From NCBI GenBank assembly GCA_030390025.1, contig CM059427.1:65968001-66032000 (forward strand): 64,000 bases of DNA, read 5' to 3'. This DNA is from Squalus acanthias (taxonomy: Eukaryota). Positions 2,483-64,000 of this stretch are shown here, one piece after another. How positions within the stretch are numbered: position 1 is the stretch's first letter; every line of letters starts with the position of its first letter. The translations under genes and the position numbers were made by a program. The notes beneath the pieces were generated by a model. It ran no database searches. It was not told where the DNA came from and saw only the letters and a list, made by a program, of their open reading frames with translations.

Positions 2483-2737
2483 TCACAAGGGTAGTCACTT
2501 GGGTGTTTTAATGTCATGCATATTTAATATAATCATCGCCATTTCAATTGCAATAAAGAAATGCGATTGCAAACATTCAAAGAGCTGGCCTATGTGTGCC
2601 CAGAAATGGAAGTGTCACAATGAGGTGTCAGGGTGCCTTTCATCTGTAATGATGGTGAGAGTGATAGGAACCCACAGTTTATTGTACATTGTGTATGGTG
2701 TGTTAAGGTGGCAGCCACATGTGTTTGCTTCATTAAC

Positions 2738-4784: not shown

Positions 4785-7700
4785 AGAACATAACGTAAGA
4801 ACTAGGAGCTGGAGAAGGCCATTTGGCCCTTCAAGCCTACTCCGCCATTCAACAAGATCATGGCTGATCTTCTACCTCAACTGTTCCAGTACAGCTATAA
4901 CGCTGGCATCTATCCGACAATGTGGAAAACTGCCCAGGTATGTCCTGTCCACAAAAAGCAGGACAAATCCAATCCAGCCAATTACCGCCCCATTAGTCTA
5001 CTCTCAATCATCAGTAAAGTGATGGAAGGTGTCGTCGACAGTGCTATCAAGCAGCACTTACTCACCAATAACCTGCTTACTGATGCCCAGTTTGGGTTCC
5101 ACCAGGACCACTCTGCTCCCGACCTCATTACAGCCTTGGCCCAAACATGGACAAAAGAGCTGAATTGCAGAGGTGAGGTGAGAGTTACTGCCCTTGACAT
5201 CAAGGCAGCATTTGACCGAGTGTCGAGGAGTCCTAGTAAAACTGAAGTCAGTGGGAATCGGGGTGGACTCTCTGCTGTTTGGAGTCATACCTAGCACAAA
5301 GGAAGATGGTTGTGGTGGTTGGCGGTCAATTATCACAGCCCCAGGACATTGCTGCAGGAGTTCCTCAGGGCAGTGTCCTCGACCCAACCATCTTCAGCTG
5401 CTTCGTCATCAATGACCTTCCCTCAGTCATAAGGTCAGAAGTGGGGATGTTCGCTGATGACTGCACAGTGTTCAGTGCCATTCGCAACTCCTCAGATAAT
5501 GAAGCAGTCCATGCCTGCATGCAGCAAGACCTAGGCGACATTCAGGCTTGGGCTGATAAGTGGCAGGTAACATTCGTGCCACACAAGTACCAGGCAATGA
5601 CTATCTCCAACAAGTGAGTCTCTAACCACCGCCCCTTGACATTCAATGGCATTACCATCGCCAAAACCCCCACCATCAATATTCTGGGGGTCACCATTGA
5701 CCAGAAACTTAACTGGACCAGCCACATAAATACTGTGGCAACAAGAGCAGGTCAGAGGCTGGATATTCTCCTGACTCCCCAAAGCCTTTCCACCATCTAC
5801 AAGGCACAAGTCAAGAGTGTGATGGTATGCTCTCCACTTGCCTGGATGAGTGCAGCTCCAGCAACACCCAAGAAGCTCGACAGCATCCAAGACAAAGCAG
5901 CCCGTTTGATTGGCACCCCATCCACCACCTTAAACATTCACTCCCTCCTCCACCGGTATACTGTGGCTGTAGTGTGTACCATCTACAAGATGCACTGCAG
6001 CAACTCACCAAGTCGTCTTCGACGGCACCTCCCAAACCTCTACCACCTAGAAGGACAAGGGCAGCAGGCGCATGGGAACACCATCACCTCCAAGTTCCCC
6101 TCCAAGTCACACACCATCCTGACTTGGACGGATATCACCGTTCCTTCATCGCCGCTGGGTCAAAATCATGGAACTCCCTCCTTAACAGCACTGTGGGAGT
6201 ACCATCACCACACGGACTGCAGCAGTTCAAGAAGGTGGCTCACAACCACCTTCTCAAGGGCAACTAGAGATGAGCAATAAATGCTGGCCTTGCCAGCGAC
6301 GCCCACATCCTATGAATGAATTTAAAAAAAACTCCACCTTCCCACACTATTCCCATATATCTTAATTCCTTTCGTTCCCAAAAATTTGTCAACCTGTGTC
6401 CTGAATATACTCGATCACTGAGCATCCACAACTCTCTGGGGTAAAGAATTCCAAAGATTCACAACCCTTTGAGTGAAGAAATGTTTCCTCATCTCAGTCA
6501 TAAATGGCCGACCCCATATTCTGAGACTGTGATCCCATGTTCTAGATTCCCCAGCCAGGGGAAACATTTTCTCGGCATTAACCAGATCAAGCCCCTTAAG
6601 AATTTTATATGTTTCAATTCGATCACTTCTCATTCTTCTAAACTCTAGGGAATATAGGCCTAGTCTACTCAATCTCTCCTCACAGGGCAATCCCCTCATC
6701 CCAGGAACCAGTCTAGTGAACCTTCATTGCACTCCCTCAAAGGCAAGTATGTCTTTCCTTAGGTAAGGAGACCAGAACTGTACACAGTACTCCAGGTGTG
6801 GCCTCACCAATGTCCTGTATAATTGTAGTAAGACTTCTTTACTCTTCTACTCTAATCCCTTTGTAACAAAAGCTAACATACCATTTGCTTCCCTAATTGC
6901 TTGCTGTACCTGCAATGTGATTCATGTAAAGGACACCCAGGTCCCTCTGAATGCCAACATTTCCCAGTCTCTCACCATTCAAAAAATATTCTGCTTTTTT
7001 GTTTTTCCTGCCAAAGTGGATAACTTCACACTTCCCCACATTGTATTCCATTTGCCATGTTCTTGCCCACTCAGTCAACCTGTCTATATCTCTCTGCAGC
7101 CTCTTTGTGACCTCCTCACAGCTTACTTTACCACCAAACTTTGTATCAGCAAACTGGGATACGTTACACTCAGTCCCTTCATCTAAGTCATTAATATAGA
7201 TTGTAAATAGCTGAGGGCCAAGCACTGATCCTTGCGGTACCCCGCTAGTTACAGCCTGCCAACCTTAAGTCCCGTTTATTCCTACTCTCTCTTTTCTGTC
7301 CATTAACCAATCCTCAGTTCATGCTAATATATTGCCTCCAATCCCATGAGTCTTAATTTTATGTAATAACCTTATGGAATGCTTTTTGAAAATCCAAATA
7401 CACTACATCCACTGGTTCCCCCTTATTTACTTCTTCAAAACACTCAAGAGATTTGTCAAACACGATTTCCCTTTCATAAAACCATGCTGACTCTGCCTAA
7501 TCATATTATGATTTTCTAAGTGCCCTGTTACCATGTCCCTAATAATAGATTCTAACATTTTGCCTACTACTGATGTGAGGCGAACTGGCCTATAGTTCCC
7601 TGTTTTTTCTCTTCCTCCTTTCTTAAATAGCGGGGTTATGTTTGCTACCTTCCAATCCGTGGGAACCGTTTTAGAATCTAGGGAATTCTGGAAGATTAAT

Positions 7701-13860: not shown

Positions 13861-14621
13861 GGGCCAGAAATTCAGCTTTCCGGCTTCCTGCGGGTGCAAG
13901 CATCGCGCGCGTACTTGCGTACCGCGCCTGCTATTGTGCTTTGGGCCCACGAGGACTTCGGCTCCTGGGCCTCCTGCAGCTGCCGGTGTGCAGTGCTTGC
14001 GCATCCCAGGGGCGCAGTTAGTTCGAAGCGTCCCCATGGATCACGTGGGCCATGGAGAGCCAATCCTAACAGCATTTTCATTCATAGATTTGACAGGAAG
14101 ACCTGTCAAATCTATGAATAGAGATCGGCCCCAAAACCACACTTAAACTTCAAAAAAAAATTTTTTAATCACATTTTTAAAATAACTAAGTTACATAAAT
14201 TAACTACTTTAAACAAAAATTAAAATTTTTGAAAAAATTAATTATACTTTTTAACGGTGCTAAAAATAAACTTACCTTTCTTCAAAGTATGTAGAAAAGA
14301 TAAACCTGTTGAAAAAATGTTTAAATTGTAATTAATTAACTAACCACTTACCTTGTTAAAAACAAGCCTTGCGCCGCCTCTTTAAAAGTGCAGCTTTTCC
14401 ATACTTACCCTCACGGAGAAACCTGAAAAAAAACCTGAAGTTCGCTGCGTGCGCGCAGCCTCTCCCGCGCACGCGTTCGACTTCTGAACCCCTCCCTTCA
14501 GGGGAACGGAAGTTCCGGTTTCCTGCGCATGCGCAGTGCATGCAGGAAACCGGCACTTCAGGTGGCCTTACGGGTGAGTACACAGCGCGTACTCACCCGA
14601 CAAGAGCCGAATTTCTGGCCC
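13861..14621. mobile_element. Non-autonomous Harbinger-type MITE (761 bp)
   Basis: Perfect 13-bp TIR GGGCCAGAAATTC / GAATTTCTGGCCC resembling the Harbinger termini. CpG-rich arms and AT-rich core. TSD is not clean (ATT/TTA). Confidence 0.75.
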
Positions 14622-16689
14622 TTATGTTTAATTTCTTAACTTGGAGACAGATTCTGTGAAGGCATGTTCAAAGATTATTTTGCAAATGTTCTTGTTCATG
14701 TGTATGTGCACCGAGTCTCTTGTATGAAGTACTGGTGACTCAGGAATGTGTACCGTAGTACTTCAAGATGTTGCAGAGGTACACTTCTCCATCACTCAAA
14801 AATACATACTGTAATTAAAAGCCTGTGAAGATGTTTGGCTTTTGAAAAATAAATGTGTAATTAAAACATGGTGCAGTTTGGGGTAGCTGTACAAGGAGAG
14901 ATGATGGAATTGACCTTGATTATTGCTAAGAACACAAAGACTTTAGTGTGTGACCCAACAACCCTGTCAGGAGGTGATGTGACGCTTCATTTGAACTTTT
15001 GTATACAAGGAACAGAGTTCCAGGGAATGACACTGGCCAGTACACAGTATCTGCGAGACAGTATCACAGGCAGGAAGAGTGTGTCTAAAATCTGGACTGA
15101 TACTAAATGTTTTGGTTTGATACGAAATGCGGAGATGCAGCTCCAGTACCTGGCTCATCCTTCAAACTTTTTTTTGCCAGCCGGGGGCTGCTTTATTTTC
15201 TACGTCTTTGTGAAAAATGCACATAACAGCTTTAAATATTTAATCTGGATATCTTCATAAATGTTAATTACACATTTGTCCAATTTAAACACACAGCACC
15301 CAATCCTATTATTTGCATAAAATGTTTTCTGGTTATTGTTCACTAATTATAGATGAGGAAGGCCAATTTGCCCCATCTTAAACCATTCACCCAGAAAGAT
15401 CCTGCAGTTTCTCCCTCCCCCATCCTTCAGGATCTTAAATGATGGCAAGGTTTTTGGCTCCACCACACAATTTCGAAATTTGTTCCATGTATTGATCACT
15501 TTGAAGGGCGAACGTTTTGATACCGGTCTTAATTTATCTTTTACTAGCTCGAACCTGTATCCCCTTCTTCCTAACAAATACATTTTCTTTCAGGTGAGCG
15601 GACTCGAGAGTTTCGGTTTGTTTTCCATGTGGATTCTTCACCATATCACCATTCTGTTTTCTTTCATTCAAATGAACACTTTCACAGCTCATTCTTTAAA
15701 TTCTCCTAAGGCATCTGATCAACCCAAAGCCAAACGAGTGTGTGCCTAATATTATAGGGTCGAACTACATTAAAGCCTCATTGTACTTGATTGACTGTCA
15801 GTGTTCTGATAAGAATTTATATTGTCTTATTAGTGATGATAATGTTAAGTAGTGGCAATTTACTTTGGCGTCCCTATTCATTACAATTGAGGTTCCCAGG
15901 TGCCATGGCACACTTGTGTGTACCTGGCTTCTTTGAGAAGGAAGTAAGGATTATTTGCAACGTGATCATAACACAACTTCAGGATTTCAATCATCTGTCC
16001 TGACTACATATAAATAAATTTTATCTATATCAGGCAGTGTGATCCTTGAGTGTAAGTTGCAGTATCCAATATAACAGTTTCAATTGTGCATTCTTTACCT
16101 CCATGAATTAAACATGAATGCTTAAAAAATGTGTTTTTAAAGAACTGTACAGCGTTTAAATATTTATAATTTAAGATTCAAAGCAAAGTTTGAATCCATA
16201 GTGTAATGTGCAAAATTATATGGATTATCCAGATATACTGTACTTGTGGCGGCAGTGTGCTGATGAGGTTTATTCTTCAGGGCACATTAAGAATGAATTG
16301 AGCAAGTCCATCACAGTTGGCAGTACTGTGAAATCCTTCTGCATGCAGTGTATAGAAAGTGATAATGACTTTTGAGCATGAAATGTAATGTACAGCTTCA
16401 AAGATTGATTTGAATATGCTGTAGGTATAGTGCACTAGAATTATAAAATAGCTATTACTGCTAGCTTTATGGCTGGTAAGTGAACAGGTGTAATCAGTTT
16501 CCTTCAACTGTACCATGAAATTTTCATAACATTTGTCAAGAGTCTGCTTTATAGTAGCAGAACAAGGTTGCATTTTCCACTTTTTCATAATATTAAAAAG
16601 ACTCGGTACTAACATTATATAGTGCCAAGGAGATCCAACCAACTGCCTGAAACCTTTTTTTTAAACTGAGCTTTAGATCAGTTAGTGCA

Positions 16690-17330
16690 GGGATATGGGT
16701 CAAGCAAACTGCTCTGTCCTGATGGAATTGAGATTCTGGAGTGTTGTGGCTGTATCCATCCAGGTAAGTAGTGAGAGTTCCATCACACTCCTGATGAGAC
16801 TTGTAGATGGGGGTGAGGCTTTAAGGGGTCAGGAGGTGAGCCCCCCATCGCAGATTACTCCGCATCTGCCCTGCTGTTGCAGCCACATTGTTGATGTAGC
16901 TGATCCAGTTAAAGCTCTGGACAGTGGTAACACCAAGATGTTAATTTGGTGGGGGGGGGGAGGAATCGATTAATGGTGGTGCTGTTGATGGTCATGGGGA
17001 AATGGTTGGGCTTTCTCTTTGGAGATAGCCATTACCCAGCGCTGAAGTGGTACAAATTACGTGCGACTTATCCCAAGCCTGGACGTTATCCAGGTCCTCC
17101 TGTAGTCTGTAGATGATGTGAATGTAGTTGGACATGGTGTAATTGTCAGTTGACCGCCATCTTTCTGACTTTATGATGGCGGGCGGTCGTTGATAAAGCA
17201 GCTGAAGATGGTTGGGCTGAGAACCTTTCCCTGAACTCCTGCAGTGATACCCTGGGGTTACGATGACTAGCCTCCAACAAACATAGCCATCTTCCTTTTT
17301 GTTGGGTATAACTCCAGGCACAGAGAGGAA
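16690..17330 (-). mobile_element. Decayed RT fragment of the 39156-42367 LINE family
   Basis: Similar to 5280-5900 (CCAACCATCTTCAGCTGC, GGAAGATGG). Confidence 0.65.
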
Positions 17331-18012: not shown

Positions 18013-19536
18013 CATAGTCATAGAGTTATACAGCACAGAAAGAGGCCCATCGTGTCCGCGCCGGCCATCAAACCCTATCTATTCTAATCCCATTTTCCAG
18101 CACTTGGTCCGTAGCCTTGTATGCTATGGCGTTTCAAGTGCTCATATAAATGCTTCTTGAATGTTGTGAGGGTTCCTGCCTCTACTACCCTTTCAGGCAG
18201 AGTTACAGATTTCAACCACCCTCTGGGTGAAAAAGTTTTTCCTCAAATCCCCTCTAAACCTCCTGCCCCTTACCTTGAAACTATGCCCCCTGGTTATTGA
18301 CCCCTCTACTAAGGGGAAAAGTTCCTTTCTATCTGCCCTATCTATGCCCCTCATAATTTTGTACACCTCAATCAGGTCCCCCCTCAGCCTTCTCTGCTCG
18401 AAGGAAAAGAACCCCAGCCTGTCCAGTCTCTCTTCATAGCTGAAGCGCTCCAGCCCAGGTAACATCCTGGTGAATCTCCTCTGCACCCTCTCCAATGCAA
18501 TCACATTCTTCCTATAGTGTGGCGACCAGAACTGCACACAGTATTCCAGCTGTGGCCTAACTAGCGTTTTGTACAGCTCCATCATAACCTCCCTGCTCTT
18601 GCCTTCATTAGCCGAGGCATAGAATATAAGTCTCCCATATGCCTTTTTAACCACCTTCTCTACCTGTCCTGCTGCCTTCAGGGATCTATGTACATGCACA
18701 CCAAGGTCCCTCTGATCCTCTGTCCTTCCGAGGGTCCTACCATTTATTGTGTATTCCCTTGCCTTGTTAGTCCTCCTAAAATGCATCACCTCACACTTTT
18801 TAGGGTTAAATTCCATTTGCCACTGTTCTGCCCATCTGACCAATCCGTCTATCGTCCTGTAGCCTGAGGCTTCCCTCCTCGCTATTTACCATTCCACCAA
18901 TTTTCGTGTCATCTGCGAACTTACTGATCATGCCTCCTACATTCATATCGAAATCATTAATGTACACTACAAACAGCAAAGGACCCAGCACCGATCCCTG
19001 CGGTACACCACTGGACACAGGCTTCCAGTCACAAAAACAACCTTTGATCATCACCCTCTGCCTCCTCTCACTAAGCCAATTTTGGATCCAATGTGCCAAA
19101 TTGCCCTGGATCCCATGGGCTTTTACCTTCTTGACCAGTCTCCCATGCAGGACTTTGTCAAAAGCCTTACTGAAGTCCATGTAGACTATATCAACTGCAC
19201 TACCCTCATACACCAAGTCACCCCCTCTCAAAATTCAATCAGATTGGTTAGACATGATCTCCCCCTGACAAAGCCATGCTGACTATCCTTGATTAATCCT
19301 TGCCTCTCCAAGTGGAGACTAATTCTGTCCCTCAGAATTTTTTCCAATAATTTCCCTCCCACTGATGTTCGGCTCACTGGCCTGTAATTCCCTGGTTTAT
19401 CCCTACTACCCTTCTTGAATAATGGTACTACATTAGCTGTCCTCTGGTACCTTCCCTGTGGCCAGAGAGGTTCTGAAAATTTGTGTCGGAGCCCCTGCAA
19501 TCTCCTCCCTTGCCTCACACAGCAGCCTGGGATACA

Positions 19537-22500
19537 ATAAGGATAAAAGCTAAAGACAGGAAGGAGAAAAACAAAAGTAGAAGGCAAAGAACTCAACGGT
19601 TTAAATCAAACATGGTCACAGTAAATAATAATTCATATAGGTCTGAGAGCGTTAAAAAAACAAGCCTGAAGGCTTTGTGTCTTAATGCAAGGAGCATTCG
19701 GAACAAGGTGGATGAATTAGCTGCGCAAATAGAGGTAAATGAATACGATTTGAATGGGATTACAGAAACATGGCTCCAGGGTGGCCAAGGCTGGGAACTC
19801 AACATCCAGGGTTATTCAATATTTAGGAAAGATAGGCAAAAAAGAAAGGGAGGTCGGGTAGCATTGCTGGTTAAAGAGGGGATTAACACAATTGAAAGGA
19901 AGGATATTAGCTCTGATGATGCGGAATCTGTATGGGTAGAACTGAAAAATAACAAGGGGCAGAAAACGTTAGTGGGAGTGGTATATAGACCTCCAAACAG
20001 TAATACGGAGGTTGGGGACGGCATTAAAAGGGAAATTAGAGAAGCATGCAGTAAGGGCACAGCAGTCATCATGGGTGACTTTAATTTACATATAGATTGG
20101 GCTAACCAAATTAGTAAAAATACTGTGAAGGAGGAATTCCTAGAATGTTTACGAGATGGTTTTCTGGAACAATATGTCGAGGAACCAACCAGAGATCAGG
20201 CCATCTTAGACTGGGTATTAGGCAACGAGAAAGGATTAATTAGCAATCTTGTTGTACGAGGCCCCTTGGGTCAGAGTGATCATAATATGATAGAATTCTT
20301 CATTAGGATGGAGAGTGAAGTAGTTGAATCAGAGACTAGGGTCCTGAATTTAAATAAAGGAAACTACTATGGTATGAGGCGCGAATTGGGTAGGATTGAT
20401 TGGGGAATGTCACTCAAGGGGTTGACGGTGGATAGGCAATGGCAAACATTCAAAGACTGCATGGATGAACTACAGAATTTGTACATCCCAGTGTGGCATA
20501 AGAATAAAACAAAAAGGGTGACTCAACCGTGGCTAACAAGGGAAATTAGGGATAGCATAAGATCCAAGGAGAGGGCATATAAATTGGCCAGAAAAAGCAG
20601 TAGCCCTGAGGATTGGGAGCAGTTTAGGATTCAACAAAGGAGGACAAAGGGATTAATTAAGAAGGGGGAAAATAGAATATGAAAGTAAGCTTGCTGGGAA
20701 CATAAAAACTGACTGCAAGAGCTTTTATAGATATGTGAAGAGAAAAAGATTAGTGAAATCAAGTGTAGGTCCCTTGCAGTCAGAAGCGGGGGAAGTTATA
20801 ATGGGGAACAAAGAAATGGCAGCCCAATTAAATGCATATTTTGGTTCTGTCTTCACAAAGGAGGACACAAATAACCTCCCAGAGATGTTGGAGAACATAG
20901 GGTCTGATGAAAGGGAGGAACTGAAAGAAATCAGTATTTGCAGGGAAATGGTGTTAGGGAAATTGACGGTATTGAAGGCCGATAAATCCCCAGGGCCTGA
21001 TAATCTACATCCTAGGGAAGTGGCCCTAGAAATAGTAGATGCATTGCTGATCATCATCCAACATTCGATGGAATCTGGAACTGTACCCATGGATTGGAGG
21101 GTAGCTAATGTTACCCCACTATTCAAAAAGGGTGGTAGAGAGAAAGCGGGGAATTACAGACCGGTAAGCCTGACATCGGTAGTGGGGAAAATGCTAGAGT
21201 CCATTATAAAGGATGTAATAGCTGAGCATTTGAAAAACAGTGACCGGATCGGACAAAGTCAACATGGATTTACAAAAGGTAAATCGTGCTTGACTAATCT
21301 ACTGGAATTTTTTGAGGATGTAACTGGGAAAATAGATAAGGGAGAACCAGTAGATGTGGTGTATTTGGACTTTCAAAAGGCTTTCGATAAGGTCCCGCAT
21401 AAGAGATTAGCGGGTAAAGTTAAGGCACATGGGATTGGGGGCAAGGTATTGACTTGGATAGAGAACTGGTTGGCGGACAGAAAGCAGAGAGTAGGAATTA
21501 ATGGGTCTTTTTCCGAGTGGCAAGTAGTGACTAGTGGGGTACCGCAGGGATCGGTCCTTGGACCCCAGCTATTCACAATATACATTAATGATCTAGATAA
21601 GGGAATTAAATGTAATATCTCCAAGTTTGCAGATGAGACAAAGCTGGGTGGGAGTGTGTGCAGCGAGGAGGATAGCGAGAAACTCCAGGATGATCTGGAC
21701 AGGTTGGGTGAGTGGGTAGAAGCGTGGCAGATGCAATATAATGTGGATAAGTGCGAGGTTATCCACTTTGGTGTCAAAAACAGAAAGGCAGACTATTCTC
21801 TGAATGGCAATAGATTGGGAGAAGGGGAAGTGCAACGAGACCTGGGTGTCCTTGTGCACCAGTCGCTGAAAGTAAGCATGCAGGTGCAGCAGGCGGTGAA
21901 GAAGGCAAATGGTATGTTGGCCTTCATAGCGAAAGGGTTTGAGTATAGGAACAGGGATGTCCTGCTGCAGTTGTACAGGGCCTTGGTGAGACCACACCTT
22001 GAGTACTGTGTGCAGTTTTGGTCGCCTTATCTGAGGAAGGATGTTCTTGCCATGGAAGGAGTTCAGCGAAGATTCACAAGGCTGATACCTGGGATGGCAG
22101 GAATGACATATGAGGAGAGATTGGGTCGATTGGGCTTATACTCGCTGGAGTATAGAAGAATGAGAGGGGATCTCATCGAAACATATAAAATTCTGACCGG
22201 TCTGGACAAACTAGATGCAGGAAGAATGTTCCCGATGGTCGGAGGGTCCAGAACCAGGGGTCATAATCTACGGATAACGGGTAAACCATTTAGGACAGAA
22301 ATGAGGAAGAATTTCTTCACCCAGAGAGTGGTGAACCTGTGGAATTCTCTACCACAGAAGGTAGTTGAGGCGAAGTCATTAAATATATTCAAGGATGAGT
22401 TAGATATATTTCTTAAAGCTAAAGGTATCAAGGGATATGGGGAGAAGGCAGGTACAGGGTACTGAGTTTAGATGATCAGCCATGATCTCATCGAATGGCG

Positions 22501-22555
22501 GAGCAGGCTCGAGGGACCGAATGGCCTACTCCTGCTCCTATCTTCTATGTTTCTA
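19537..22555 (+). mobile_element. Young 5'-truncated CR1 LINE nested in an opposite-strand CR1
   Basis: Contains a near-complete ORF2 and 3' UTR ending in TTCTATGTTTCTA. The flanks join into continuous host CR1 sequence. Confidence 0.9.
19612..22465 (+). pseudogene. CR1 ORF2 (APE endonuclease + reverse transcriptase) with one frameshift
   Basis: LNARSIRNK, ITETW, YRPP, GDFN, SDHN; then SPGPD, QHGF, DFQKAFDKV, GVPQGSVLGP, FADE. ORFs 19483-20682 and 20735-22465 are offset at a G5 run (20664-20668). Confidence 0.9.
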
Positions 22556-37140: not shown

Positions 37141-37189
37141 AATATGATTGTGTATTTTTTTTTACTCCTTTCTATTTTCCTACATAGTG

Positions 37190-37607
37190 TTTGTTTCATT
37201 CTTGGAATGTGGGCGTCGCTGGCAAGGATGGCATTTATTGCTCATCCCTAGTTGCCCTGAGAAGGTAGTGGAACCGCTGCACTCCATGTGGTCTTATTAT
37301 TCTTTGTAGCGGTTTGATACAACTGACAGACTTGCTAGGCTATTTGAGAGGGCAGTTAAGAGTCAACCACGTTGATGTGGAACTGGAGTCAGACCAGATA
37401 AGGACGGCAGGTTTCCTTCCCTAAAGGAAATTGGTGAATCAGTTGGGTTTGTATGACAATCAGATAGCTTCATAAGTCACTATTTTTAATTATACCAGCT
37501 TTTTAAACATTTGTTTGATTTTTAAATGTAATTCAAATTCTCAAACTGTCATGCTCATGCTCTCTGAATTACTAGTCTAGTAACATAAACACTACACTAC
37601 AGTACCC
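37190..37607 (-). repeat. tRNA-headed MetaSINE-like element / internally deleted derivative of the 39156-42367 LINE
   Basis: Same head and body as 42040-42367 (TTTAGGGAAGGAAACCTGCCGTCCTT, TGGTTGACTCTTAACTGCCCTCT) joined to the LINE ORF end and 3' tail. Confidence 0.8.
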
Positions 37608-39155
37608 ATCTAATTTCTCCCATTTCCTTTCTGCTACCTGGTGGTTTGTAGTATACCACTAATCGTGTGACCAATCCCATCCCTTCCTATCCTTTATCTC
37701 AATCTATATGGAATCTGTTTCTATCTCTGTTGTTAGTTACGTCCTTTCTGTTGTGTTGTTTCTGGTCTTGCCCTCTGACATCAGTCTGGTTTTTCAGTTA
37801 GAAGTGGAAAAGAATCTCAGAATTGATATTGTAAGCAGTGACTGCGCAACAAATTTAAAGGGACTGCGCATGGAAAAAAAATTAGAGGAAACTTTGATTG
37901 TGGCCATGCAATATAAAGTAATATTTCCATGGTTTCATAACTATGTTCATTTTAAAACCTTAAATGTTTATATTCAAGTCTCAATGCTAATAGTCACGAA
38001 GTGAGACCTCGGCAAGAAGGTACCATTTTTCTTTGTGTTAGTGCAATTTCTGAACAAAGGAAAACCCAACTGAGGCATCTCACCTGCTTTTGTGGGGGTG
38101 GGGAAACAGCTTGTGAATAGAAGGGTAACACATTACTCAGGGAGCATCTAGGAAAAAATCCATGTAACAGGTGGTTGAATTTTCCTGATGACATTGACAG
38201 TCCTGCAGACTACGATTATTTGGAATGCTGACAGAGCGAGTATATAGTATTCAGAGATTGTTGACAGATGAGCCATACTGGGCATAATGTGCCAGCAAAA
38301 CAGCACGGTGGGGGGAGATAAAATGTGATTCAAGTGTCATGAAGTGTCTTGGTTGTTAATTAGTTTGTAGACATTTTTCGTCCCGTCATTCAGTGTGGGG
38401 TTTAGAGAAATGTTCTCTCCCCCCCCCCCCCCTGCTGGTGTAACCAGCATTTAACAAAAAAAGAGAAGTGCATTAGCTTTTTACTGCTTCATGAAATATG
38501 GTAGAAAGTCCGTGTTTGTTGTACTTACTGTAGTTTCCCCTATTTATAAAAAGAATATGTAGGTGAGGTGTAGGAAAAATAAGCCTGGTATTTTAACATT
38601 TTAATAGACGATACAGTTTTATTTGCTTTTATTGTTGTGGAATGTTTTCAACAAGATTAAGTGACACACATTGGATAATATGAACAATGATGGGAAAAGA
38701 CCTTCTGTTGCATCTAGATTGTCTCACACAACTGCAATGCCTTGTGCAGCACAATATGTACACTCTCCAATCCCACCGGAACGCCATGTAATCTCGTGGG
38801 AAAGGCCAAAAACCCAGGCCAATTAGGGGAAACAAAATCTGGGAAATTCCTCTCTGACCCCCTTCGGCGATCAGAGCTAGTCCAGGAGACCATTCTGGCT
38901 CTGATTCATCTTATACAGTACCTACCTTTTTGTGCAGGGTGATCTCCGCCCCAGCAAGAAACTGGTCCAGCTCTCACTTGGGAGTGTTCAGCGAATCAGC
39001 ATTCACCGCACAAGCATTAGCTATGTTCCATATGGCCACTGTTCTCATAGGGGGAGCGGGGAGGTGGTGGGGAAACCATCTTCTAATACGTAATCTAGCT
39101 TCTGGCCTTGCATACCTTGAGGTTGTGACCCCCAGTCCTCCCAAATTTACTTTTT

Positions 39156-42100
39156 TTTAAATTCGTTTATGGGATGTGGGCGTCGCTGGCAATTTATTGC
39201 CCATCCCTAATTGCCCTTGTGGTGAGCTGCCTTCTTGAACTGCTGCAGTCCGTGTGGTGAAGATACTCCCACAGTGCTGTCAGGTAGGGAGTTCCAGGAT
39301 TTTGACCCAGCGACGATGAAGGATCGGCAATATACTTCTAAGTCAGGATGGTGTGTGACTTGGAGGAGAACTTGGAGGTGGTGGTGTTCCCCATGCGCCT
39401 GCTGCCCTTGTCCTTCTAGATGGGAGAGGTCGTGAGTTTGGGAGGTGCTGCCGAAGAAGCCTTGGTGAGTTGCTGCAGTGCGTCTTGTAGATGGTACACA
39501 CTGTAGCCACGGTATGCTGGTGGTGGAGGGGGTGAATGATTAAGGTGGTGGATGGGGTGTCAATCAAGTGGGCTGCTTTGTCCTGGATGGTGTCGAGCTT
39601 CTTGAGTGTTGTTGGAGCTGCACTCATCCAGGCAAGTGGAGAGTATTCCATCACACTCCTTACTTGTGCCTTGTAGATGGTAGAAAGGCCTTGGGGAGTC
39701 AGGAGGTGAGACACTCGCCGCAGAATACCCAGCCTCTGACCTGCTCTTGTTGCCACAGTATTTGTGTGGCTGGTCCAGTTAAGTTTCTGGTCAATGGTGA
39801 CCCCCTGGATGTTGGTGGGAGATTTGGCGATGGTAATGCCGTTAAATGTCATGGGGCAGTGGTTAGACTCTCGCTTGTTGGAGATAGTCATTGCCTGGCA
39901 CTTCTGTGGTGCGAATGTTACCTGCCACTTATCAGCCCAAGCCTGATTGTCGTCCAGTTCTTGTTGCATGTGGGCATGGACTGCTTCATTATCTGAGGAG
40001 TTGTGAATGGCGCTGGACACTGTGCAGTCATCAGCGAACATCCCCATTTCTGACTATGTTGGAGGGAAGGTCATTGATGAAGCAGCTGAAGGTGGTTGGG
40101 CTTAGGACACTGCCCTGAGGAACTCCTGCAGCGATGTCCTGGGGCTGTGATGATTGACCTTCAACCACCACAACCATCTTCCTTTGTGCTAGGTATGACT
40201 CCAGCCAGTGGAGAGTCCACCCCCCCCCCCGATTCCCATTGACTTCAGTTTTACTTGTGCTCCTTCATGCCACACTCGGTCAAATGCTGCCTTGATGTCA
40301 AGGGCAGTCACTCTCTCCTCACCTCTGGAATTCAGCTCCTTTGTTCATGTTTGGACCAAGGCTGTAATGAGGTTGGGAGCCGAGTGGTCTTGGCGGAACC
40401 CAAACTGGGCATCAGTGAGCAGGTTATTGGTCATGATGTGGAGATGCCGGCGTTGGACTGGGGTGGACAAAAGTGAGAAGTCGCACAAGGTTATTGGTGA
40501 GTAAGTGCCGCTTGATAGCACTGTTGATGACACCTTCCATCACTTTGATGATTGAGAGTAGAATGATGGGGCAGTAATTGGCTGGATTGGATTTGTCCTG
40601 CTTTTTGTGGACAAGACATACCTGGAAAGTTTGCCACATTGTCGGATAGATGCCAGTCTTGTAGCTGTACAGGAACAGCTTGGCTCGAGGCGCGGCTAGT
40701 TCTGCAGCACAAGTCTTCAGCACGATAGCTGTGATGTTGTCGGGGCCCAAAGCCTTTGCTGTATCCAGTGCGCTCAACCGTTCTTGATATCACGTGGAGT
40801 GAATCAAATTGGCTGAAGACTGGCTTCTGTGATGGTGGGGACCTCAGAAGTTGGCCGATATAGATCATCCACTCGGCACTTCTGGCTGAAGGTGGTTGCA
40901 AACACTTCAGCCTTGTCTTTTGCACTCACCTGCTGGGCTCCACCGTCATTGAAGATGGGGATATTTATGGAGCCGCCTCCTCCTCCCATTAATTGTTCAA
41001 TGGTCCACCAGCATTCACGACTGGATGTGGCAGGACTGCAGAGCTTTGATCTGATCGTTTGATTGTGGGATCGCTTACCCCTGTCTATAGCATGCAGCTT
41101 CCCCAGGTTGGCACCTCATTTTTAGGTACGCCTGGTGTTGCTTCTGGCATGCTCTTCTACACTCCTCATTGAACCAGGGTTGGTCCCCTAGCTTGAATGC
41201 AATGGGTAGAGTGAGGGATATGCCAGGCCATGAGGTTACAGATTGTGGTGGAATACAATTCTGTTGCTGCTGCTGATGGCCCACAGCACCTCATGGATGC
41301 CCAGTTTTGAGCTGCTAGAACTGTTCTGAATCTATCCCATTTAGCACGGTGGTAGTGCCACGCAACACGATGGAGAGTGTCCTCAGTGTGAAGACGGGAC
41401 TTCGTCTCCACAATTACTGTGCAGTGGTCACTGCTACCAATACTATCATGGACAGATGCATCAGCGACAGGTATGTTGGTGAGGACGAGGTCCAGTCGGT
41501 TTTTCCCTCTTGTTGGTTCTCTCACCACCTGTCGCAGGCCCAGACTGGCAGCTATGTCCTTCAGGACTCGGCCAGCTTGGTCAGTAGTGGTGCTACCGAG
41601 CCACTCTTGTCGATGGACATTGAAGTCCCCCACCCAGAGTACATTCTGTGCCCTTGCTACTCTCAGTGCTTCTTCCAAGTGGTGTTCAACATGGAGGAGT
41701 ACTGATTCATCAGCTGAGGGAGGGCGGTCGGTGGCAATCAGCAGGAGGTTTCATTGCCCATGCTTGGCCTGAAGTTAATGTTGAGGACTCCCAGGGCCAC
41801 TCCTTCCCGCCAGTATACCACTGTGCCGCCACTCCAGGGATGCTGATGGCGGAGTTTGGGACATTGGCTGAAAGGTATGATTTTGTGAGTGTGACTATGT
41901 CAGGCTGTTGCTTAACTAGTCTGTGGGACAGCTCTCCCAATTTTGGCAGAAGTCCCCAGATGTTGGTGAGGAGGACTTTGCAGGGTCGACTGAGCTGGGT
42001 GTGCCATTGCCGTGGTCGATCCGCTTTTATTATTATGTTATGTTACAACTGAGTGGCTTGCTAGGCCATTTCAGAGGGTAGTTAAGAGTCAACCACATTG

Positions 42101-42367
42101 CTGTGGGTCTGGAGTCACATACAGGCCAGACCAGGTAAGGACGGCAGATTTCCTTCCCTAAAGGATATTAGTGAACCAGATGGATTTTTGCAACAATCCA
42201 ATAGTTTCATGGTTACCATTACTGATACTAGCTTTTTAATTCCAGATTTAGTTAATTAACTGAATTTAAATTCCCTAGCTGGTGGGATTTGAACTCACGT
42301 CTCCAGATCATTAGTCCAGGCCTCTGGATTACTAGCCCAGTGACATTACCACTGTGCTACTGTTCCC
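39156..42367 (-). mobile_element. Full-length single-ORF LINE (APE + RT, decayed) with tRNA-derived SINE-like 5' head
   Basis: A-box TAGCACAGTGG (42359-42349) and B-box GAGTTCAAATCCC (42296-42284). APE start KVLLTNIWGL...QPDIVTLT at ~41980, then VGDFNVH, LDLVLT, SDH, RT MFADD. 3' tail as in 6270-6330. Confidence 0.85.
40432..40487 (-). repeat. 56-bp 5'-truncated retroposed insertion (same family as 63451-63586)
   Basis: 11-bp TSD AGGTTATTGGT (40421-40431, 40488-40498). Sequence matches 63451-63506. Confidence 0.85.
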
Positions 42368-49478: not shown

Positions 49479-50191
49479 CATTTTAGGGGTTTTTTCCAGT
49501 CATGTTTGGAAAAACAAATTACCTGCTTTTTAAGTAAGCAGTTGTGTTCTGAATTCCAATTATGCATTAGTAGGTAGTTTGCTTTTTGCCGGGAATTAAA
49601 TCGGGAACTATTGAAATTGTGCATAAGCCATTTAAAATTGCTTGGTGAAAAAGATGTTTGTTTTTGACACCATGGGCTGGATTTTCAATGACCTGTGGAG
49701 TCGGGTTTGGAGGTGTGTGGGGGGTTAAAGTTGCAGATTCGGGGGTCCCGACCCCATCCCGCCTCCACGCAATTTTGACAAAATCGGTCGCAGGGTTCTC
49801 GACTCCGTCCCGCCTCCAAGAGGCGGGAGAGGCCATTAAAGCCCTTAACAATCCCTAAATTGGCTCAGTAATGCCATTTTGAAGCATTTTAGGTAGTTTA
49901 ACCCTTTTCTCACGTGAAGCACACCTGATGTGAAACATGCCAGTGAAACCTGGCGGAGCACAAGTGGATTGCTGACTCTCAGCTGCAGCTCAACCTTTAA
50001 ATAGGAGATTTGATCAGCCATCAATTGCAGGTGGCAGGACTTTGTCGTCACAGGTCTGGGGGAACTTTTAGAAGGCATAACCACAGCTCTGGAAGTTTGG
50101 AGCCTGACCCCCATCTGCAGAGTGACCTCCTGGGAAACCCCTCTCGCCACCCTCATTGAGCACTTCCTCAACTGAGACATATACCAGAGGC

Positions 50192-51404
50192 ATGGGAGCC
50201 ATTTATTTCTTTCCCTCCTGGGCATCCGATGAGGACGGACAACAGCCGCGGCACCAGCAGAACCATGAACAACAGCAGCAGCAACAGCAGGAGCGCCAAG
50301 CTGCTGCACACCCACCTGAAGCTGCACAGGACAGAAGGGGCCAGCGCATGGAAGGCCGTCGGTGCAGGAGATACCCCCCAAACAGGGTCTACAGACAGAG
50401 GGTCAGCTACCTCAACATGTCTGAGCAGCAGTGCCAATGGCGGCTCCGACTTTCGCGAGAGGTAGTGGGTGACATCTGCGCAATGCTGCAACAAGACCTG
50501 GAGCCCAGAGGACCAGGTGGACGCCCCTTACCAGTGGCCGTCAAAGTCACCACCGCACTCAACTTTTTTGCCTCAGGCTCATTCCAGGGATCATCAGCAG
50601 CATCTCCCAGGCGGCCGCACACACCTGCATCACGCAGGTAACCGATGCCCTCTTTGCCATCGCGCACAATCACATCCATTTCACCAAGGATCGAGCAAGT
50701 GTCACGGTGCATGCGGTTGGATTAGCTAATCTGGCAGGCTTTCCAAAGGTGCAGGGCGTCATTGACTGCACACATGTGGCCCTTAAGGCACCCCATCGCA
50801 ATCCAGGTATTTTTGTCAACCGCAAGGGCTTCCACTCCCTCAACGTTCAGCTGGTGTGTGACCACAACAAGGAAGTGCTGCATGTTTGTGCCAAGTACCC
50901 TGGCAGTTGCCATGACTCCTTCATACTGCGCCAGTCTAGTGTGCCTCTGCTATTCAGTCCGCCAGACCAACTTCACAGATGGCTACTTGGAGACAAGGGC
51001 TATCCCCTGAAGACATGGCTAATGACGCCGTTGAGGAGCCCATCCAACGCAGCTGAGGAGAGCTACAACTCCAGCCACATTTCCACCAGAGCCATAATCG
51101 AGCAAACCATCGGTATGCTGAAGATGCGCTTCAGATGCCTGGATAGATCAGGTGGAGCCCTGCAATACTCAGCAGCCAGGGTCCCAGAATCGTCGTGGTT
51201 TGCTGTGCACTTCACAACATGGCACAGCGTCGTGGCTTACAGATGCCGGAGGACCAAGTGGCTCCTCACATAGCCTCCTCAGATGAGGAGGAGGAGAGAG
51301 AGAACGAACAACTTGCAGAGGCCCCTCAACCAGCGGCAGCATTATGCGAGACCATAGCTGCCCGGAATGCAAGGAACGCACTCATCTTGGCCAGATTTGC
51401 TTAG
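50192..51404 (+). pseudogene. Harbinger DDE transposase with two frameshifts
   Basis: MGAIYF...[11 protein letters not shown] / [10 protein letters not shown]...VIDCTHV...HDS...GDKGYP...[16 protein letters not shown] / CCALHN. Breaks at ~50595 and ~51185. Confidence 0.9.
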
Positions 51405-51659
51405 CCTAGACAAGAAAGCACTTTTGCCTCGCAGCTTCTTACCAGAGCTACGACAATGGCCCAGACCCAGCGGATCCCTAACAATGTGACCACCATACTG
51501 ACAATTGCAAGTTATCCTAAGGCCTCATTGTGGAAGTCCCATTAGCGAAATGACAGACGCCACAACTGCAGCTGTAGCCATCAGTTTTTATTTACACTTT
51601 ACACCTGATGGCTTTTTCACATTAAACATCAAAATTCACCCAAGTGACTACCCTTGTGA

Positions 51660-53580
51660 CTATTTGTGCAGTTTCTTTCTCTTACACGTGCTCCTACGTG
51701 GTGCTTCCCCTGTGGCTTCAGCAGAAGTGGAGGCCCCCTGCTCAGTTTGTTGCTGCTCCTGTCTCGACTCCTTTGGCGGGCGTCCTCTGGGGTTGCGAAC
51801 CTGCGAGGGCTCGGCAACAGTCTGCTGCTCCTGCGGCTGGGCAGGGGTTGAGACGCCGATCTCACTTGGGTGCGGACTCTGGTGGGGCTCTGAACGAGGA
51901 CCTGTCAGTGGCATGGAAGTGTGAGCGCTTGGAGAGGAGCCCCCACCTCCTTGTTGTGTGCCACCAACATCCCTCTCATGGGTCAGGTCCACCTCAGCGC
52001 TTGCAAGTGGCTTGAGAGCACCTTGCTGGCCATGGGGACCCGTATCTGCACTGGAAGTCCTACTCCGAAGGACTTCCATGAAGGTCTGGTTTCTCTGTTC
52101 AATAGATGACCATCGCTCCTCAAGAGATGCCAGTCTATTCTGAACAATGACCATGTTTTCTGCACTCTGGCGACTTATCTCCTCCATAGCCGTAGTCATC
52201 CTTTCCACGGAGGTTGCCATCCTTTCCGTGGTGATGTGTTCATGCGCCAATGACTCCACAAAGGCTCTGCTGATGTTCGCTATGGACTCCTCCATTCGCT
52301 CCACACTCGCAGCGACCCTGGAGACAAAACCTGTCAGAGACTCCTGCATCTGTTCCTGGAGTCCCAGCACCGCTGATCTTATGGATGGACCCAGAGGCAG
52401 AGGGTCGACATGCAGCTGAGCCGAGCTAGGACAGTCCTGCGCCCTCCGACTAGGACTCTCCATTGCTGTCCCTGTCTCCACCATCTGCTGATGCTCACTT
52501 GTGAGCTGTGATACACCAGGTGACAACACTACTCTATGTCCCGAGGGTCCCACCGAGGTGTGAGTGTCTGCGCTGGTGCTGGGTGCGCTGAGTTCTGCTG
52601 ACGCTGCGCCCTCAGAGGTTGCAGCTTCCTCTGAGGAGTCTGTCTGCTCAGGCTCTTCCTCCTGGCTAGTGGGGACGGGTGCTTGCGATGGTCCTGTGGG
52701 GGAGTAAAGGAAAGAGTCAGAGATGTGATGCTAAGGTTACATGCACATTGCATATTGCAGTTGATCATAAATCCATCTGTTAGAGCTTCAGATTCATTAT
52801 CAGCGACTCATGCAATGTCAGTGAGAGAGATGGAACACTATTCAGTCACCAGCTTGCTCTGATGCACCCATCTGTCCGTCCCCCACTTGCGTATCCTCCT
52901 CTACGCCCACGATCTCCAGGACCGCATCCTCCCAGGGGGTGAGCTGGGCTAATGAGGGTAGCCCTCGTCCTGTCCTGGCTCTTTCCCTTTTATTGTGAGC
53001 TCTCTTTTCCTGCAATGAGGGAGACAAGTGGAGTTTGAGTGAGATTGAAGGAGTGAGTGTAGAGAATCCATAGCATAGATGCTTAGAAGGAGACAAAGAT
53101 GGATTGAGGTGGCGAGACTAAGGGCCCTCCCTGTGTGTTGTAAGTTGTTTTCAAAGCATGACTGTGATAGGTAGTGTGAGGGCTGCATAGTCGAATAGTA
53201 AGGGGAATGTGACCATAGAGGGAGAGGGAATGGGTAAGGGTGCATGGATGTCAGTGTCAAGTGGGATATGGAGGAAGAGGTTGCTAAAGCTGAGTGCTGG
53301 TGAGGAGAGGCAATGGGGATCAGATTGAGGGTGAAGGGAAAGTCATACTCACTTTAGCAGTACGTAGAAGGTCATGAAACCTCTTCCTGCACTGGATCCA
53401 GGTTCTGCAGGTGAATGATAAGGAGGTGACCTCCTGGGCGATCTGGACCCACACAGCCTTGGTCTGCTGGGGAAGCTTCTTCCTCCCTGAGGAGGGGAAG
53501 AGCACCTCCCTGTTGGCTCTTGCTCCATCCACCAAAGCCTGCAGGACAACATCATGGAACCTGGGCCGTTGGCTGGCCAT
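51660..53580 (-). CDS. Intact Harbinger Myb/SANT-like protein, 3 exons (53580-53353, 53009-52850, 52693-51660), 473 aa
   Basis: 228+160+1034 nt = 1422 nt in frame with GT-AG sites. Myb-like WVQIA...TWIQCRKRFHDL, coiled coil, AT-hook PRGRPPK, basic C-terminus. Confidence 0.8.
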
Positions 53581-58636: not shown

Positions 58637-59169
58637 GTAAGTTCTTTTTCTCTACCTGACATTACTGTAATGCTTCCAAAATTCATTTTGATTTGCATGC
58701 CATTAGCCTCTTAAAATCCAAACATGCAACTAACTATTTATTAAATGATGATTTGTAACAAAATTGGTCTCTTCATTTTGTATTTTGTGCAGATTAATCA
58801 TTTCTTACTTTATGTTGTCTTTGCCTTAGTTTACAAAACATTTTTTAAATCCCTGGACATAGGGCAGGGACAGAGAGATTGACATTTTGATGCTGTAAGG
58901 CCAATTGTCAGTGCAAACAGCTCAAAAGTATCAGTTTTGGCCAAACTTTGGATCTTTACTCATTAGAAATGATAAGCATGCTGAGAATTGCATGTGTTTC
59001 CTTTGTCAGTAAGAAGTGTTTTAACTAAAACCTTTCTGTTCCTCCCTTTCCCTTTTTAAAGTTCAAAGGTAACTTTTCTCATTGTCATGCCAGTTCCTTT
59101 AACTGTTCCTTGGATGCCGTTGTATTTTGTTTAAATTGTGCTGGGTAAAATGCCTGTCAAAAATGTATT

Positions 59170-59900
59170 TGTTTTATTCTTGGGATGTGTTCAATACTGA
59201 CAAGACTGCATTTATTGCCCATCCCTAGTTTTTCTCAGAGGTGGTTGTGGGCCTTCTCCTTGAACCGCTGCAGTTCTTGTGGTGATGGTGCTTCCATATT
59301 GGCGTTATTTAGGGATTCACTGATTCTGACCCGGTGACTATGAAGGAATGGTGATATGTGGCTAAATTAGGATAGCGTATGACTCGGAGGAAAACTTGGA
59401 GGTGATGGTGTTCCCACAACATTTCTGCTCCTCTTCTTCATCATGTCAGAGATCACGGGAGGGAGGTGCTGTTGAAGTACCGTTAGTGAGTTGCTGCATT
59501 GCATCCTGTAGGCTGTGCACACAGCAGCCACAGTGCTGGGGTGAATTTGTAGCTTCTCTAATGGCTCAATTGGTTAACGAGAATGGTTCCAAGTTTGATC
59601 CTGTATGTGGTGAGTTAGCTGACCGCCACTTGGGTAGTTGGAGAACTACTACAGTTGGCTTCGGCCCATGAGTCAGGAAGGGGAAAAATCAGGTGAAGTT
59701 CTTGTTTCTGATCTCTGTCCAGCCACCCCTGCTGTAATTGGCCATGTGTGGACATTTGATGAGAAAAGGAACAGTATTTGCTCTGTTCGCTCCTGTGATT
59801 GATAAGCTAGTACTCAATGTCCAAGCTTTAACGAGTGAGGTAGAGGCAAGGAAATGTTTTCTTAGCAAGAAACCAGTGAAATAGATACCATTAAGGTCCT
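59170..59900. repeat. Decayed LINE 3' fragment (minus, 59170-59540) followed by AmnSINE2-like SINE (plus, 59545-59900)
   Basis: GCATTTATTGCCCATCCCTAG tail, then GGTGAGTTAGCTGACC...GGGGAAAAATCAG. Confidence 0.55.
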
Positions 59901-61889: not shown

Positions 61890-64000
61890 TTCTCTTCACG
61901 GATTGCCTGACTGACAATTTGTGTGAGCAAGAATTTCCTCCAGTTGAACATCAGGATGTTTTCAACCCCTGCCAAAAACTCCACTATCTATTCCATTCCC
62001 CTCCCTGGTGGCTTGCTCTCACTGAACCAGACTGCAAGCAACTGAGTTTAGAACCCCATGTACCATCCATTGTCCAAGCTAGTACCAAAACTGTTTATTT
62101 CCACCTCCGTAACATTTCCCACCTCTGTCCACACCGTAACGCTACTCATGCCTGTCATTATCCATGGTTTTGTCATTTCTGGACTTTACTTCTGCCATGT
62201 CCTTCTTGGTAGCCTACTGACCTCCACCCTCTCCCCAAATCATCTGCAACGCCACTGCCTATATCCTGTTCCACACACAACCAAATTTGCTCAGCATCAT
62301 CACTGATCTACACTGGCTTCCAATCCTCCAACAGAGAATTTTAAATCCTTCACCTCACCTCCAAAACTCTATGGCCTCGCCTCGCCCTACCTGTGCAACT
62401 TTGTGTTACCTCCAAGCTTCTGATGTACATTTTCCCTCCACTTTGGTAGCATAACCTTCAGCCACTCTGTCCTGCTCTTTGGAACTCTCTGTCTAAAGCC
62501 TGAGGTTATCTGCCTCCCTCTTTACCTTTTAAAGCCTCACTTCAACTAAGACTTTGGTCACCTCTCCTAATCCTCCTGCAAAGGCTCAATGTCCACTCCT
62601 TTTCTCTTCTGTGAATGCCTGAGGTCAGACCTGTCAATCATCCATGGAAACTATTGTATAGAATGAATGTGCACCCACTTCATCTGGTCTCTGATGCTTC
62701 AATAATACAGTGGCCATACACAATTTAATTTGCATGTACAACACTCACCTTTATATCCTAATGTCCAGATCAATTAACCTGGTCTGGTCCTGTAGACAAT
62801 TTGTCTTGAGGTCTCCATTTTGGTATTGGTTAAGGAAAGACATCTTTAATTTTAATTCTTTACTGTTTCAGAGCTGTATGAGATTACACACAGAAATCAA
62901 GAATGTTAGTGACCTTCCAAATTTCATGGGGAAAATCCTTTGATATAGTGTACTAGACTAACAAAAGACTTTTGATAAAGTACCATATGAGAGATTCCTT
63001 TACAAACTAAGGGTATCAAAAGTACAAACTATGAACTTGAATAACTAGCTAAAGAGGAGGATGTAGAGAATAGTGTAAAGAGAGTACGGCTGAAATGTGG
63101 GAAGGTATTGAGTTAAGTGTCCGTGAATCCATGTTGTGAACCTTCCTACTGTGGTATGTGTAAGTGACCTGGATTTTCATCATAAAACTTGCAGATGAAA
63201 CTAAGTTAGAGGATCTGTGAACTCAGTAGACAGACAAGATCTTACAAAGTAGGCTAGACAGGATTTGAACTTGGTCGACCAGGTGTTGAATGGAGTTCAA
63301 TGCTGACAAATGAAAGATGACGCATATTGAAAGAAAAAAATAGGCGTTTCTACTCCATGGATGGGTTTGAACTTGCTAAAGGGGAGTTGGGGGCATTGTT
63401 TGACTTGTTGCATGTCATGTCCAAGCAATGTAAGGTGGAAATAAAGTGCTCATGATGCGGAGATGCCGGTGTTGGACTGGGGTGGACAAAATTGAGAGGT
63501 CGCACAACACCAGGTTATAGTCCAACAGTTTTATTTGAAATCACAAGCTTTCGGAGCTATCGATTTGCTCCTTCCTCAGGTGAAGTAAATAAAGTGAACA
63601 TGATGCTGAAATATGTTGCTTAATTAATTTAATTAATCTAGTTAGCATAACAAAGAGGTCATTCAAGCCTCAGGAATGGTGCAGAGGAGAGCAACGAGGC
63701 TCATCCTCATTGTACAGGGGATGAGCTATGAGGGGATAGATAACTGAGATTCTTCAACCTTGATGAGAGATATCTGAGGTATTTAAAATACTTAACCTGA
63801 TAGAGAAAATAAACCTACAACAAAACTTGGGTAGCAGGACAGTGGTGACAGATTCAAGGTTGTTGACAAGTGCCAGGTAGTATTTCTTCACACAGAATGT
63901 GATTAACAGCTGGAATGTGTTGCCAGGAACGAGGTCAGAACATGACTCGTTTTCAGAAGTAGTTTGATTATGTAATGAGATGCCAGGGTTGGTATCCTGG
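61890..64000 (+). mobile_element. Old L2 (to ~62620) and CR1 (from ~62640) remnants
   Basis: Residual motifs YFHLRNI, CTACACTGGCTTCC, TTTGATAAAGTACCA, TTGCAGATGA, TTCTTCACACAG. Confidence 0.55.
63451..63586 (-). mobile_element. Short Penelope-like retroelement terminus carrying a minimal hammerhead ribozyme
   Basis: Minus strand reads UCAC-CUGAGGA-A-GGAGC-loop-GCUCC-GAAA-GCUU-GUGA (63583-63541). AAATAAAGTG is duplicated on both flanks. Confidence 0.7.

Follow-up and report, generated by a model that had tools for sequence, protein, structure and literature searches.

Can RNA polymerase III (Pol III), which to our knowledge is thought to yield only short non-coding RNAs, transcribe a complete coding retrotransposon? 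The question is raised by a locus in a 64,000-nucleotide stretch of the Squalus acanthias genome (assembly GCA_030390025.1, contig CM059427.1, forward-strand positions 65,968,001 to 66,032,000; hereafter the window, to which all coordinates refer), where a long interspersed nuclear element (LINE) on the minus strand opens with a tRNA-like promoter. In the textbook division, as given in the passage cited, LINEs are coding elements transcribed by RNA polymerase II (Pol II), whereas short interspersed nuclear elements (SINEs) do not code and are transcribed by Pol III (PMC10886601).

The window element is one decayed copy of an abundant LINE family of about 3.3 kb with a single open reading frame (ORF) encoding an APE endonuclease and a reverse transcriptase (RT). 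The family has a constant architecture, a sharp 5' end in common with a companion SINE, at least three subfamilies, a frame that is intact at the level of the family, and a scarcity of T tracts on the coding strand. On balance, this LINE is likely transcribed by Pol III from its tRNA-derived head through the whole 3.3 kb, and selection likely keeps its coding strand free of T-rich terminators.

The element and its tRNA-derived head

The decayed full-length copy occupies 39151..42367 on the minus strand, is 95% identical to the column-majority sequence of the family, and loses homology at both termini. The original prediction had its motifs and coordinates right but for the poly(A) tail, which reaches 39151 rather than 39156. 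An A-box and a B-box followed by a SINE-like body had also been proposed for this strand, and these are present: the element starts at 42367, with the A-box TAGCACAGTGG at 42359-42349 and the B-box GAGTTCAAATCCC at 42296-42284. The boxes, a loop resembling an AGU anticodon and a variable arm of great length make up a tRNA-derived head (42281..42367, minus strand). The Rfam tRNA model matches it weakly at 42360-42281 (21.3 bits, E 0.76, under the gathering score), as expected for a head of the SINE type, and ARAGORN called no tRNA in the window. The body of the head (42042..42280, minus) is common to the companion SINE, copies of which align to reference positions 5-344 and then skip to the LINE tail.

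A linker (41980..42041, minus) joins the head to the APE domain. In the window copy it is partly deleted and falls short of the intact form by some 45 nt (134 versus 176-182 nt from the same anchor). The APE motif KVLLTNIWGL begins at 41979, 63 nt past the end of the head body at 42042, close to the 70 bp or so that had been estimated. The APE domain itself (41409..41979, minus) is broken by deletions; PF14529 and PF03372 were found on two sister copies (L033 and L039). The rest of the ORF (39207..41408, minus), frameshifted in this copy, comprises the reverse transcriptase, with FADD at 40038-40027, and a C-terminal region ending at a stop codon at 39209-39207, PF00078 being found on sister copies. 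The motifs QPDIVTLT, GDFN, SDH and FADD all occur in the window copy, spread over the frames by insertions and deletions. A short 3' untranslated region (UTR) with AATAAA at 39198-39193 and an A-rich tail (39151..39206, minus) is again common to the SINE. No convincing target-site duplication was found for the window element.

A family with a single architecture

A query comprising the head and its junction was run against the 3.7-Gb genome, and the best 40 of 11,131 candidate places were scored. Apart from the window copy, all of these ran from the head into the APE domain (39/39), and the tail was reached within 5 kb in 28 of the 39. A second search with the APE domain only was made to avoid selecting for the head, and 29 of 39 other places were examined. 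Here the head continued back to the A-box in 24 of 29 copies and the remaining five were truncated inside the head or linker; none of the 29 led into an ORF1 or other 5' sequence, in agreement with the expectation that the element has no ORF1. The upstream flanks of these copies are unrelated, except for one 146-bp pair and one pair with a miniature inverted-repeat transposable element (MITE). Whether the head-ORF junction is peculiar to this locus had been set as a test of the idea, and the junction is family-wide: an exact two-motif pattern across it has 1,864 matches in the genome, against none for the reversed control. In all four sequencing runs from other organisms, contigs cover the element from head to tail, which demonstrates presence only; contigs of the same four runs carry the SINE head-to-tail joint, and read depth drops from the tail toward the APE domain in each of the four. 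No RNA run was among the sequencing runs listed as carrying the element.

The family is a LINE in having no long terminal repeats (LTRs), an A-rich 3' tail and 5'-truncated copies, and in encoding APE and then RT in one frame (Pfam PF14529/PF03372 and PF00078 on sister copies). Its core spans 3,276 alignment columns, and the column-majority frame runs for 931 codons from N-I-W at the start of the APE domain to the stop. Between old and young copies the ORF bears the mark of purifying selection, with 82 synonymous and 68 replacement differences in frame as opposed to 27/127 and 23/130 in the two other frames. Close protein relatives occur in Heptranchias, Heterodontus, Cetorhinus, Mobula and Pristiophorus, and the family is accordingly taken to extend over both sharks and rays. 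Proteins P0007, P0008 and P0019, the nearest ones, are 38-45% identical; no relatives were found in plasmid and viral collections, and a protein atlas search returned generic RT clusters only. Pieces of the LINE frame also sit in annotated shark gene models (P0028, P0075, P0168, P0175 and P0224), by exonisation or annotation error.

The linker is also an insertion hotspot for a MITE of about 770 bp, a copy of which lies free in the window (13858-14632); it is bounded by terminal inverted repeats, and 3 bp appear to be duplicated at its insertion. The insertions at one site of the LINE linker occur in both orientations and belong to several subtypes (L120-L128, L131, L133, L134 and L139); judging from these copies, the MITE has a strong target preference for the site. 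An 820-bp segment between head and APE in two copies (L077 and L090) was considered as a lost ORF1 and rejected, being this same MITE. It was likewise rejected as a retrotransposed T-rich variant of the LINE: MITE-bearing bodies share 1-9 variants (median 4), no more than random pairs, and the insertions are thus independent and have no bearing on the polymerase.

Scarcity of T tracts on the coding strand

As predicted, the sense strand of 39156-42367 has a single run of four or more T (T4+), which falls within a later 56-bp insertion (40432..40487) flanked by an 11-bp duplication (40421-40431 and 40488-40498). This insertion is skipped in sister copies and in contigs from all four sequencing runs, and it matches window positions 63447-63507 at 92%. 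It is a piece of another repeat, the end of an abundant, probably Penelope-like element that sits at other positions in sister copies (L086, L089 and L310). Two comparisons offered with the prediction hold as counts and are weak as controls, the sense strand of the element being T-poor (20%) and A-rich: the opposite strand has 12 T4+ runs, and the neighbouring CR1 has six on its sense strand in 3.0 kb. This CR1 (19477-22555), with a nearly intact ORF2 (401 + 602 codons, one frameshift), served as a control in what follows.

For the family at large, 46 of 60 candidate copies were kept after four segmental duplicates and ten short ones were dropped. Their 136,232 bases contain 33 T4+ runs, compared with 648 of A, 393 of C and 354 of G; five of the 33 lie in the tail, and no internal site is shared by more than four copies. 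Since copies are not independent, the column-majority sequence was taken as the fair unit. Over 3.3 kb, the young majority has no T4+ run, seven T3 runs and one interrupted tract. Under synonymous shuffling, its ORF has five T3+ runs where 11.3 are expected (p=0.004), and clusters rich in T number one versus 5.7 in the young majority (p=0.011) and three versus 6.7 in the old (p=0.047). Interrupted tracts with T in four of five positions occur once against 11.8 expected by composition, the corresponding figures for the other bases being 39/44, 72/50 and 22/22. At silent C/T sites, T is used in 2 of 22 cases where it would form a tract and in 176 of 480 elsewhere (p=0.005), a ratio of 0.25; among 125 related ORFs the lowest ratio is 0.75. 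A set of 148 related ORFs from 160 loci has 6,014 T tracts in total against 6,054 expected, and its lowest ratio is 0.76 as against 0.18 in the family. An RTE family of the same genome is at expectation for T3 runs (12 vs 13.7) and tracts (8 vs 9.3), and the RTE 5' ends that were fetched have no tRNA head by eye. Copies of this young RTE family (L340-L359) are 93-96% identical to one another; their frame begins with AUG and is 1,047 codons long, the 5' UTR has GC-rich repeats in tandem, and the tail is (GAA)n.

The predicted avoidance of terminators relative to shuffled controls thus stands for T-rich tracts and fails for the absence of T4 taken alone, the signal beyond chance being in T3 runs and interrupted T tracts. 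Degenerate, interrupted T tracts terminate human Pol III, according to the part of the source cited (PMC3141230). Two relatives in the set have few T4 runs (L438, 1 vs 8.3; L435, 4 vs 11.3) and yet normal counts of interrupted tracts.

The head, the companion SINE and their age

The companion short element consists of the first 340 and the last 110-130 bases of the LINE and is found genome-wide as well as in the window (37185..37607, minus, old head type with LINE tail). It has two head types, old and young, and so does the LINE: a motif of the old-type head joined to the APE start was found at 64 loci, against none for the control. Forty of these 64 were selected for an old appearance; identity to the young reference is 65-85% for most of them, and a third head type with a shorter tRNA part is included. 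The 5' boundary, judged from 38 and 21 copies of young LINEs, 10 of old LINEs and 17 of SINEs, lies 7 nt before the A-box motif in each case. Positions that differ between the old and young LINE majorities number 0 of 13 in the B-box and 1 of 11 in the A-box, compared with 7 of 52 in the stretch that separates the boxes and 13 of 77 beyond them. As read from these alignments, the head has travelled with the ORF through three subfamily generations.

A tree of heads places young SINEs with young LINEs and old with old, and offers little finer resolution. The original view that the LINE had captured a SINE promoter is not established by this grouping, which fits a derivation of the SINEs from the LINE by deletion equally well.

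An A/B-box pair was found in 1 of 60 full 5' ends of relatives of the LINE, whereas 35 of 40 heads of the family have one. In 15 related loci Rfam reported no tRNA, and a search of 160 related loci with a profile of the head gave no match. ARAGORN found nothing in 59 related loci and is uninformative, as it missed the family head too. Among the related loci, dozens of intact animal-type LINE ORFs (L360-L439) are filed under prokaryote genomes and are most likely host DNA in bins.

The leader and the start of translation

The family majority has an open frame of 972 codons, the 5' limit of which depends on the variable linker and in which the first ATG is codon 285. As had been noted, no in-frame ATG precedes the APE domain in the window copy, and an AUG in the APE frame is likewise absent from intact linkers, young or old. 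Two features go beyond the original prediction. The first is that the linker reads in the APE frame as an Arg-rich extension, similar to the N-terminus of the relative P0019, and appears to be coding, with 6 synonymous and 4 replacement differences between old and young copies in that frame, and 0/8 and 4/5 in the others. The second is an AUG-led upstream ORF of 31 codons (42115..42210, minus; MKLLDCCKNP...GLACM in the window copy), a candidate translated leader that keeps its full length in 25 of 40 young copies. Old and young copies differ in it by four synonymous changes and one conservative replacement, and by 0 and 5 in each of the other frames, which may be a weak coding signal: a binomial calculated by hand with a synonymous share of 0.3 gives p ~0.03, from five changes only and post hoc.

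An ATG late in the head body was rejected as the start: with an intact linker it is not in the APE frame, and old copies often have ACG or ACA in its place. The cases in which it is in frame arise by deletion, and no canonical -1 slippery site was seen by eye in its frame. Folding of one leader gave a stability that is not unusual (z = 0.20). AUG-independent translation of ORF2 occurs in L1, and functional mRNA made by Pol III has precedent.

Probable Pol III transcription and rival explanations

The proposed cycle would begin with TFIIIC and Pol III starting at the first G of the head, followed by read-through to the tail, as terminators are missing, and termination in flanking DNA. The encoded APE-RT would then copy the RNA from its tail by target-primed reverse transcription, and the SINEs, which consist of the head and tail of this module, would depend on that enzyme as well. 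The most speculative step is translation, which would require cap-free loading of ribosomes, translation of the 31-codon leader and re-initiation at a non-AUG codon some 30 codons before the APE domain; this step is unlikely as drawn, and re-initiation is a guess. As a whole, the picture of an autonomous coding LINE of sharks and rays that would be transcribed by Pol III from end to end, with terminators purged from 3.3 kb of coding sequence, translation free of cap and AUG, and SINEs born repeatedly by internal deletion, is put forward tentatively, falling a little short of probable.

Several observations weigh against transcription by Pol III. The identity of the polymerase is itself read from sequence, and the translation of an uncapped RNA without an in-frame AUG is left unexplained. 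The absence of T4 runs from the majority (0 vs 1.9 expected under synonymous shuffling, p=0.11) is not significant alone, and over 3.2 kb the T-poor RTE family (17% T, from 20 copies) likewise has a single T4+ run, which lies at the 3' end. Low T4 counts also occur in relatives without a known head (L360, 1 vs 3.6; L438, as above). The silent-site test is not significant in the old subfamily (5/23, p=0.13), in which 93% of columns are the same as in the young and the majority is noisy (three stops). Mild run avoidance is general, as T clusters in CR1 (19 vs 24, p=0.054) and runs of A or G in several elements (p=0.006-0.04) illustrate, and part of the T effect is therefore general. Furthermore, the tract measures were picked after the first counts had been seen, the copies descend from few masters, and most relatives are 25-43% identical and T-rich, and so are poor controls.

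A different explanation is that Pol II transcribes the LINE from a promoter inside the same 5' region, with the A- and B-boxes serving the SINE form or a chromatin role, and with T scarcity due to a C-rich, T-poor strand and selection against U-rich splice and polyadenylation signals. Non-LTR elements are held to be Pol II transcripts in the passages cited (PMC10886601; PMC5786205), the RTE control lacks internal T4 runs too, the missing T4 runs are not significant by themselves, other elements also avoid runs, and the AUG-led upstream ORF fits a capped, scanned mRNA. Weighing against it are the start base that LINE and SINE have in common, whose distance from the A-box is Pol III-like, the boxes, better kept than their surroundings in the LINE lineage, and the lack of a comparable depletion of interrupted T tracts in the RTE, CR1 and the 148 relatives; the two AATAAA in the first 130 nt of the young majority would also be awkward for a Pol II mRNA. 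Pol II is a serious contender, although an unlikely one.

A mixed use of the two polymerases, in which Pol III makes the copied template and the protein comes from capped Pol II read-through of copies in host genes, acting in trans as it does on the SINE, would explain the precise 5' end and T scarcity without cap-independent translation, and pieces of the family do lie within annotated shark gene models. It is improbable, as purifying selection on the ORF across subfamilies would be easier to understand if the RNA were copied by its own product, and a non-AUG start would still be needed. Finally, a chance SINE insertion beside a truncated LINE, or a passively spread non-coding chimera, for which the decay of the window copy is the only support, is refuted by the 1,864 junction matches, the three subfamily generations, the open 972-codon majority frame and the continuous cover in four of four runs from other organisms.

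If transcription of this LINE by Pol III is correct, the family would provide a natural Pol III mRNA ten times the length of a SINE, and would make cap-independent, non-AUG translation in a vertebrate directly testable on a defined 450-nt leader. SINEs could then also be born by deletion from one LINE that supplies both head and tail, instead of by the joining of a tRNA to a LINE tail. Even if Pol II is the polymerase, a LINE and a SINE that share a whole head over several generations were not found in our literature search.

Other elements of the window

A second copy of the same LINE, 5'-truncated and 87-91% identical, lies on the plus strand at 4881..6331, and old pieces (67-73%) of the lineage are found at 16709-17320 and 59165-59543. 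Two related two-ORF DNA transposons, 77% alike, occupy 637-3979 and 50122-53545; from their motifs we take them to be PIF/Harbinger elements, and they are possible partners of the MITE. Two overlapping frames of 371 and 294 aa on the minus strand at 9011-10865 presumably belong to a hAT-type transposase with a zinc finger.

Comparison with known systems

The absence of ORF1 is not new, as single-ORF CR1-Zenon LINEs of about 3.3 kb are already described from Lepidoptera and bivalves, together with internally deleted derivatives, the Persaeus SIDEs (PMC6740152, in the part cited), and an entry for the whale shark reads "CR1-Zenon like LINE" (bioRxiv 10.1101/443036, likewise in part). The missing ORF1 is, by the same token, probably a trait of the clade. 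The shark family resembles these elements in length, in its single APE and RT ORF, in its A-rich tail and in having a short derivative that joins its 5' end to its 3' end. However, Persaeus, whose 5' end is that of Zenon, lacks both homology to tRNA and a Pol III promoter according to the cited part of that description (PMC6740152), whereas the shark LINE has a tRNA head as its 5' end, no in-frame AUG and depleted T tracts. An RT tree, which included no named Zenon sequence and from which one row was dropped for short cover, places the family among relatives of 850-980 aa. Its neighbour there is a clade that includes a butterfly (Colias) protein, RTE and shark CR1 lie elsewhere in the tree, and the nodes that join these groups are weak. 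From the two-ORF CR1 of vertebrates the family differs in lacking an ORF1 upstream of APE and in an RT that falls outside the CR1 clade.

tRNA-derived SINEs with LINE tails include, in the passages cited, MetaSINEs (PMC4824008), SlmI/RSg-1 and HE1/HER1 (PMC3747384) and SacSINE1/L2-2_CM (PMC5499810). The companion SINE is such a SINE2 element, with an A/B-box head, a body and a LINE-type tail. The AGU loop agrees with the resemblance to tRNA-Thr reported for MetaSINE heads in the cited part of that work (PMC4824008), SlmI being given as derived from tRNA-Leu (PMC3747384, in the passage cited). The 66-bp Meta domain, which follows directly on the tRNA head, has no clear match by eye in an unaligned comparison with the two bivalve families given in the source passage, and one short likeness further on. 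Known SINE-LINE pairs, as far as the source passage goes, share the tail only or have pieces of the LINE UTR in the SINE body (PMC5786205), whereas here a coding LINE carries the whole head. The description of SINE2 elements as short and non-coding accordingly fails for the long form, which codes, and holds in length for the form at 37185-37607. A tRNA-headed coding LINE in sharks was not described in the literature searched, and Repbase or Dfam may already list the family. RTE-1_DAn and related Repbase entries, autonomous-type LINEs reported to contain a tRNA-like sequence matching many SINE2 elements (PMC5786205), belong to the RTE clade, and the source passage makes no claim of Pol III transcription and gives no position or function for the tRNA-like part. 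RTE-1_DAn is a possible precedent.

R2 is not known to have a conserved AUG. As a single-ORF non-LTR element whose RNA is uncapped in nature, according to the passage cited (PMC12222951), it is a coding LINE that resembles the shark family in its single ORF and would resemble it in its uncapped RNA, but it is co-transcribed with rRNA, released by a ribozyme, has another endonuclease and has no tRNA promoter. Pol III promoters on retroelements other than SINEs are described in the cited source for the Cassandra, Helenus and Ajax TRIMs (miniature terminal-repeat retrotransposons; PMC10886601), which, unlike the shark LINE, are of the LTR type, short and non-coding.

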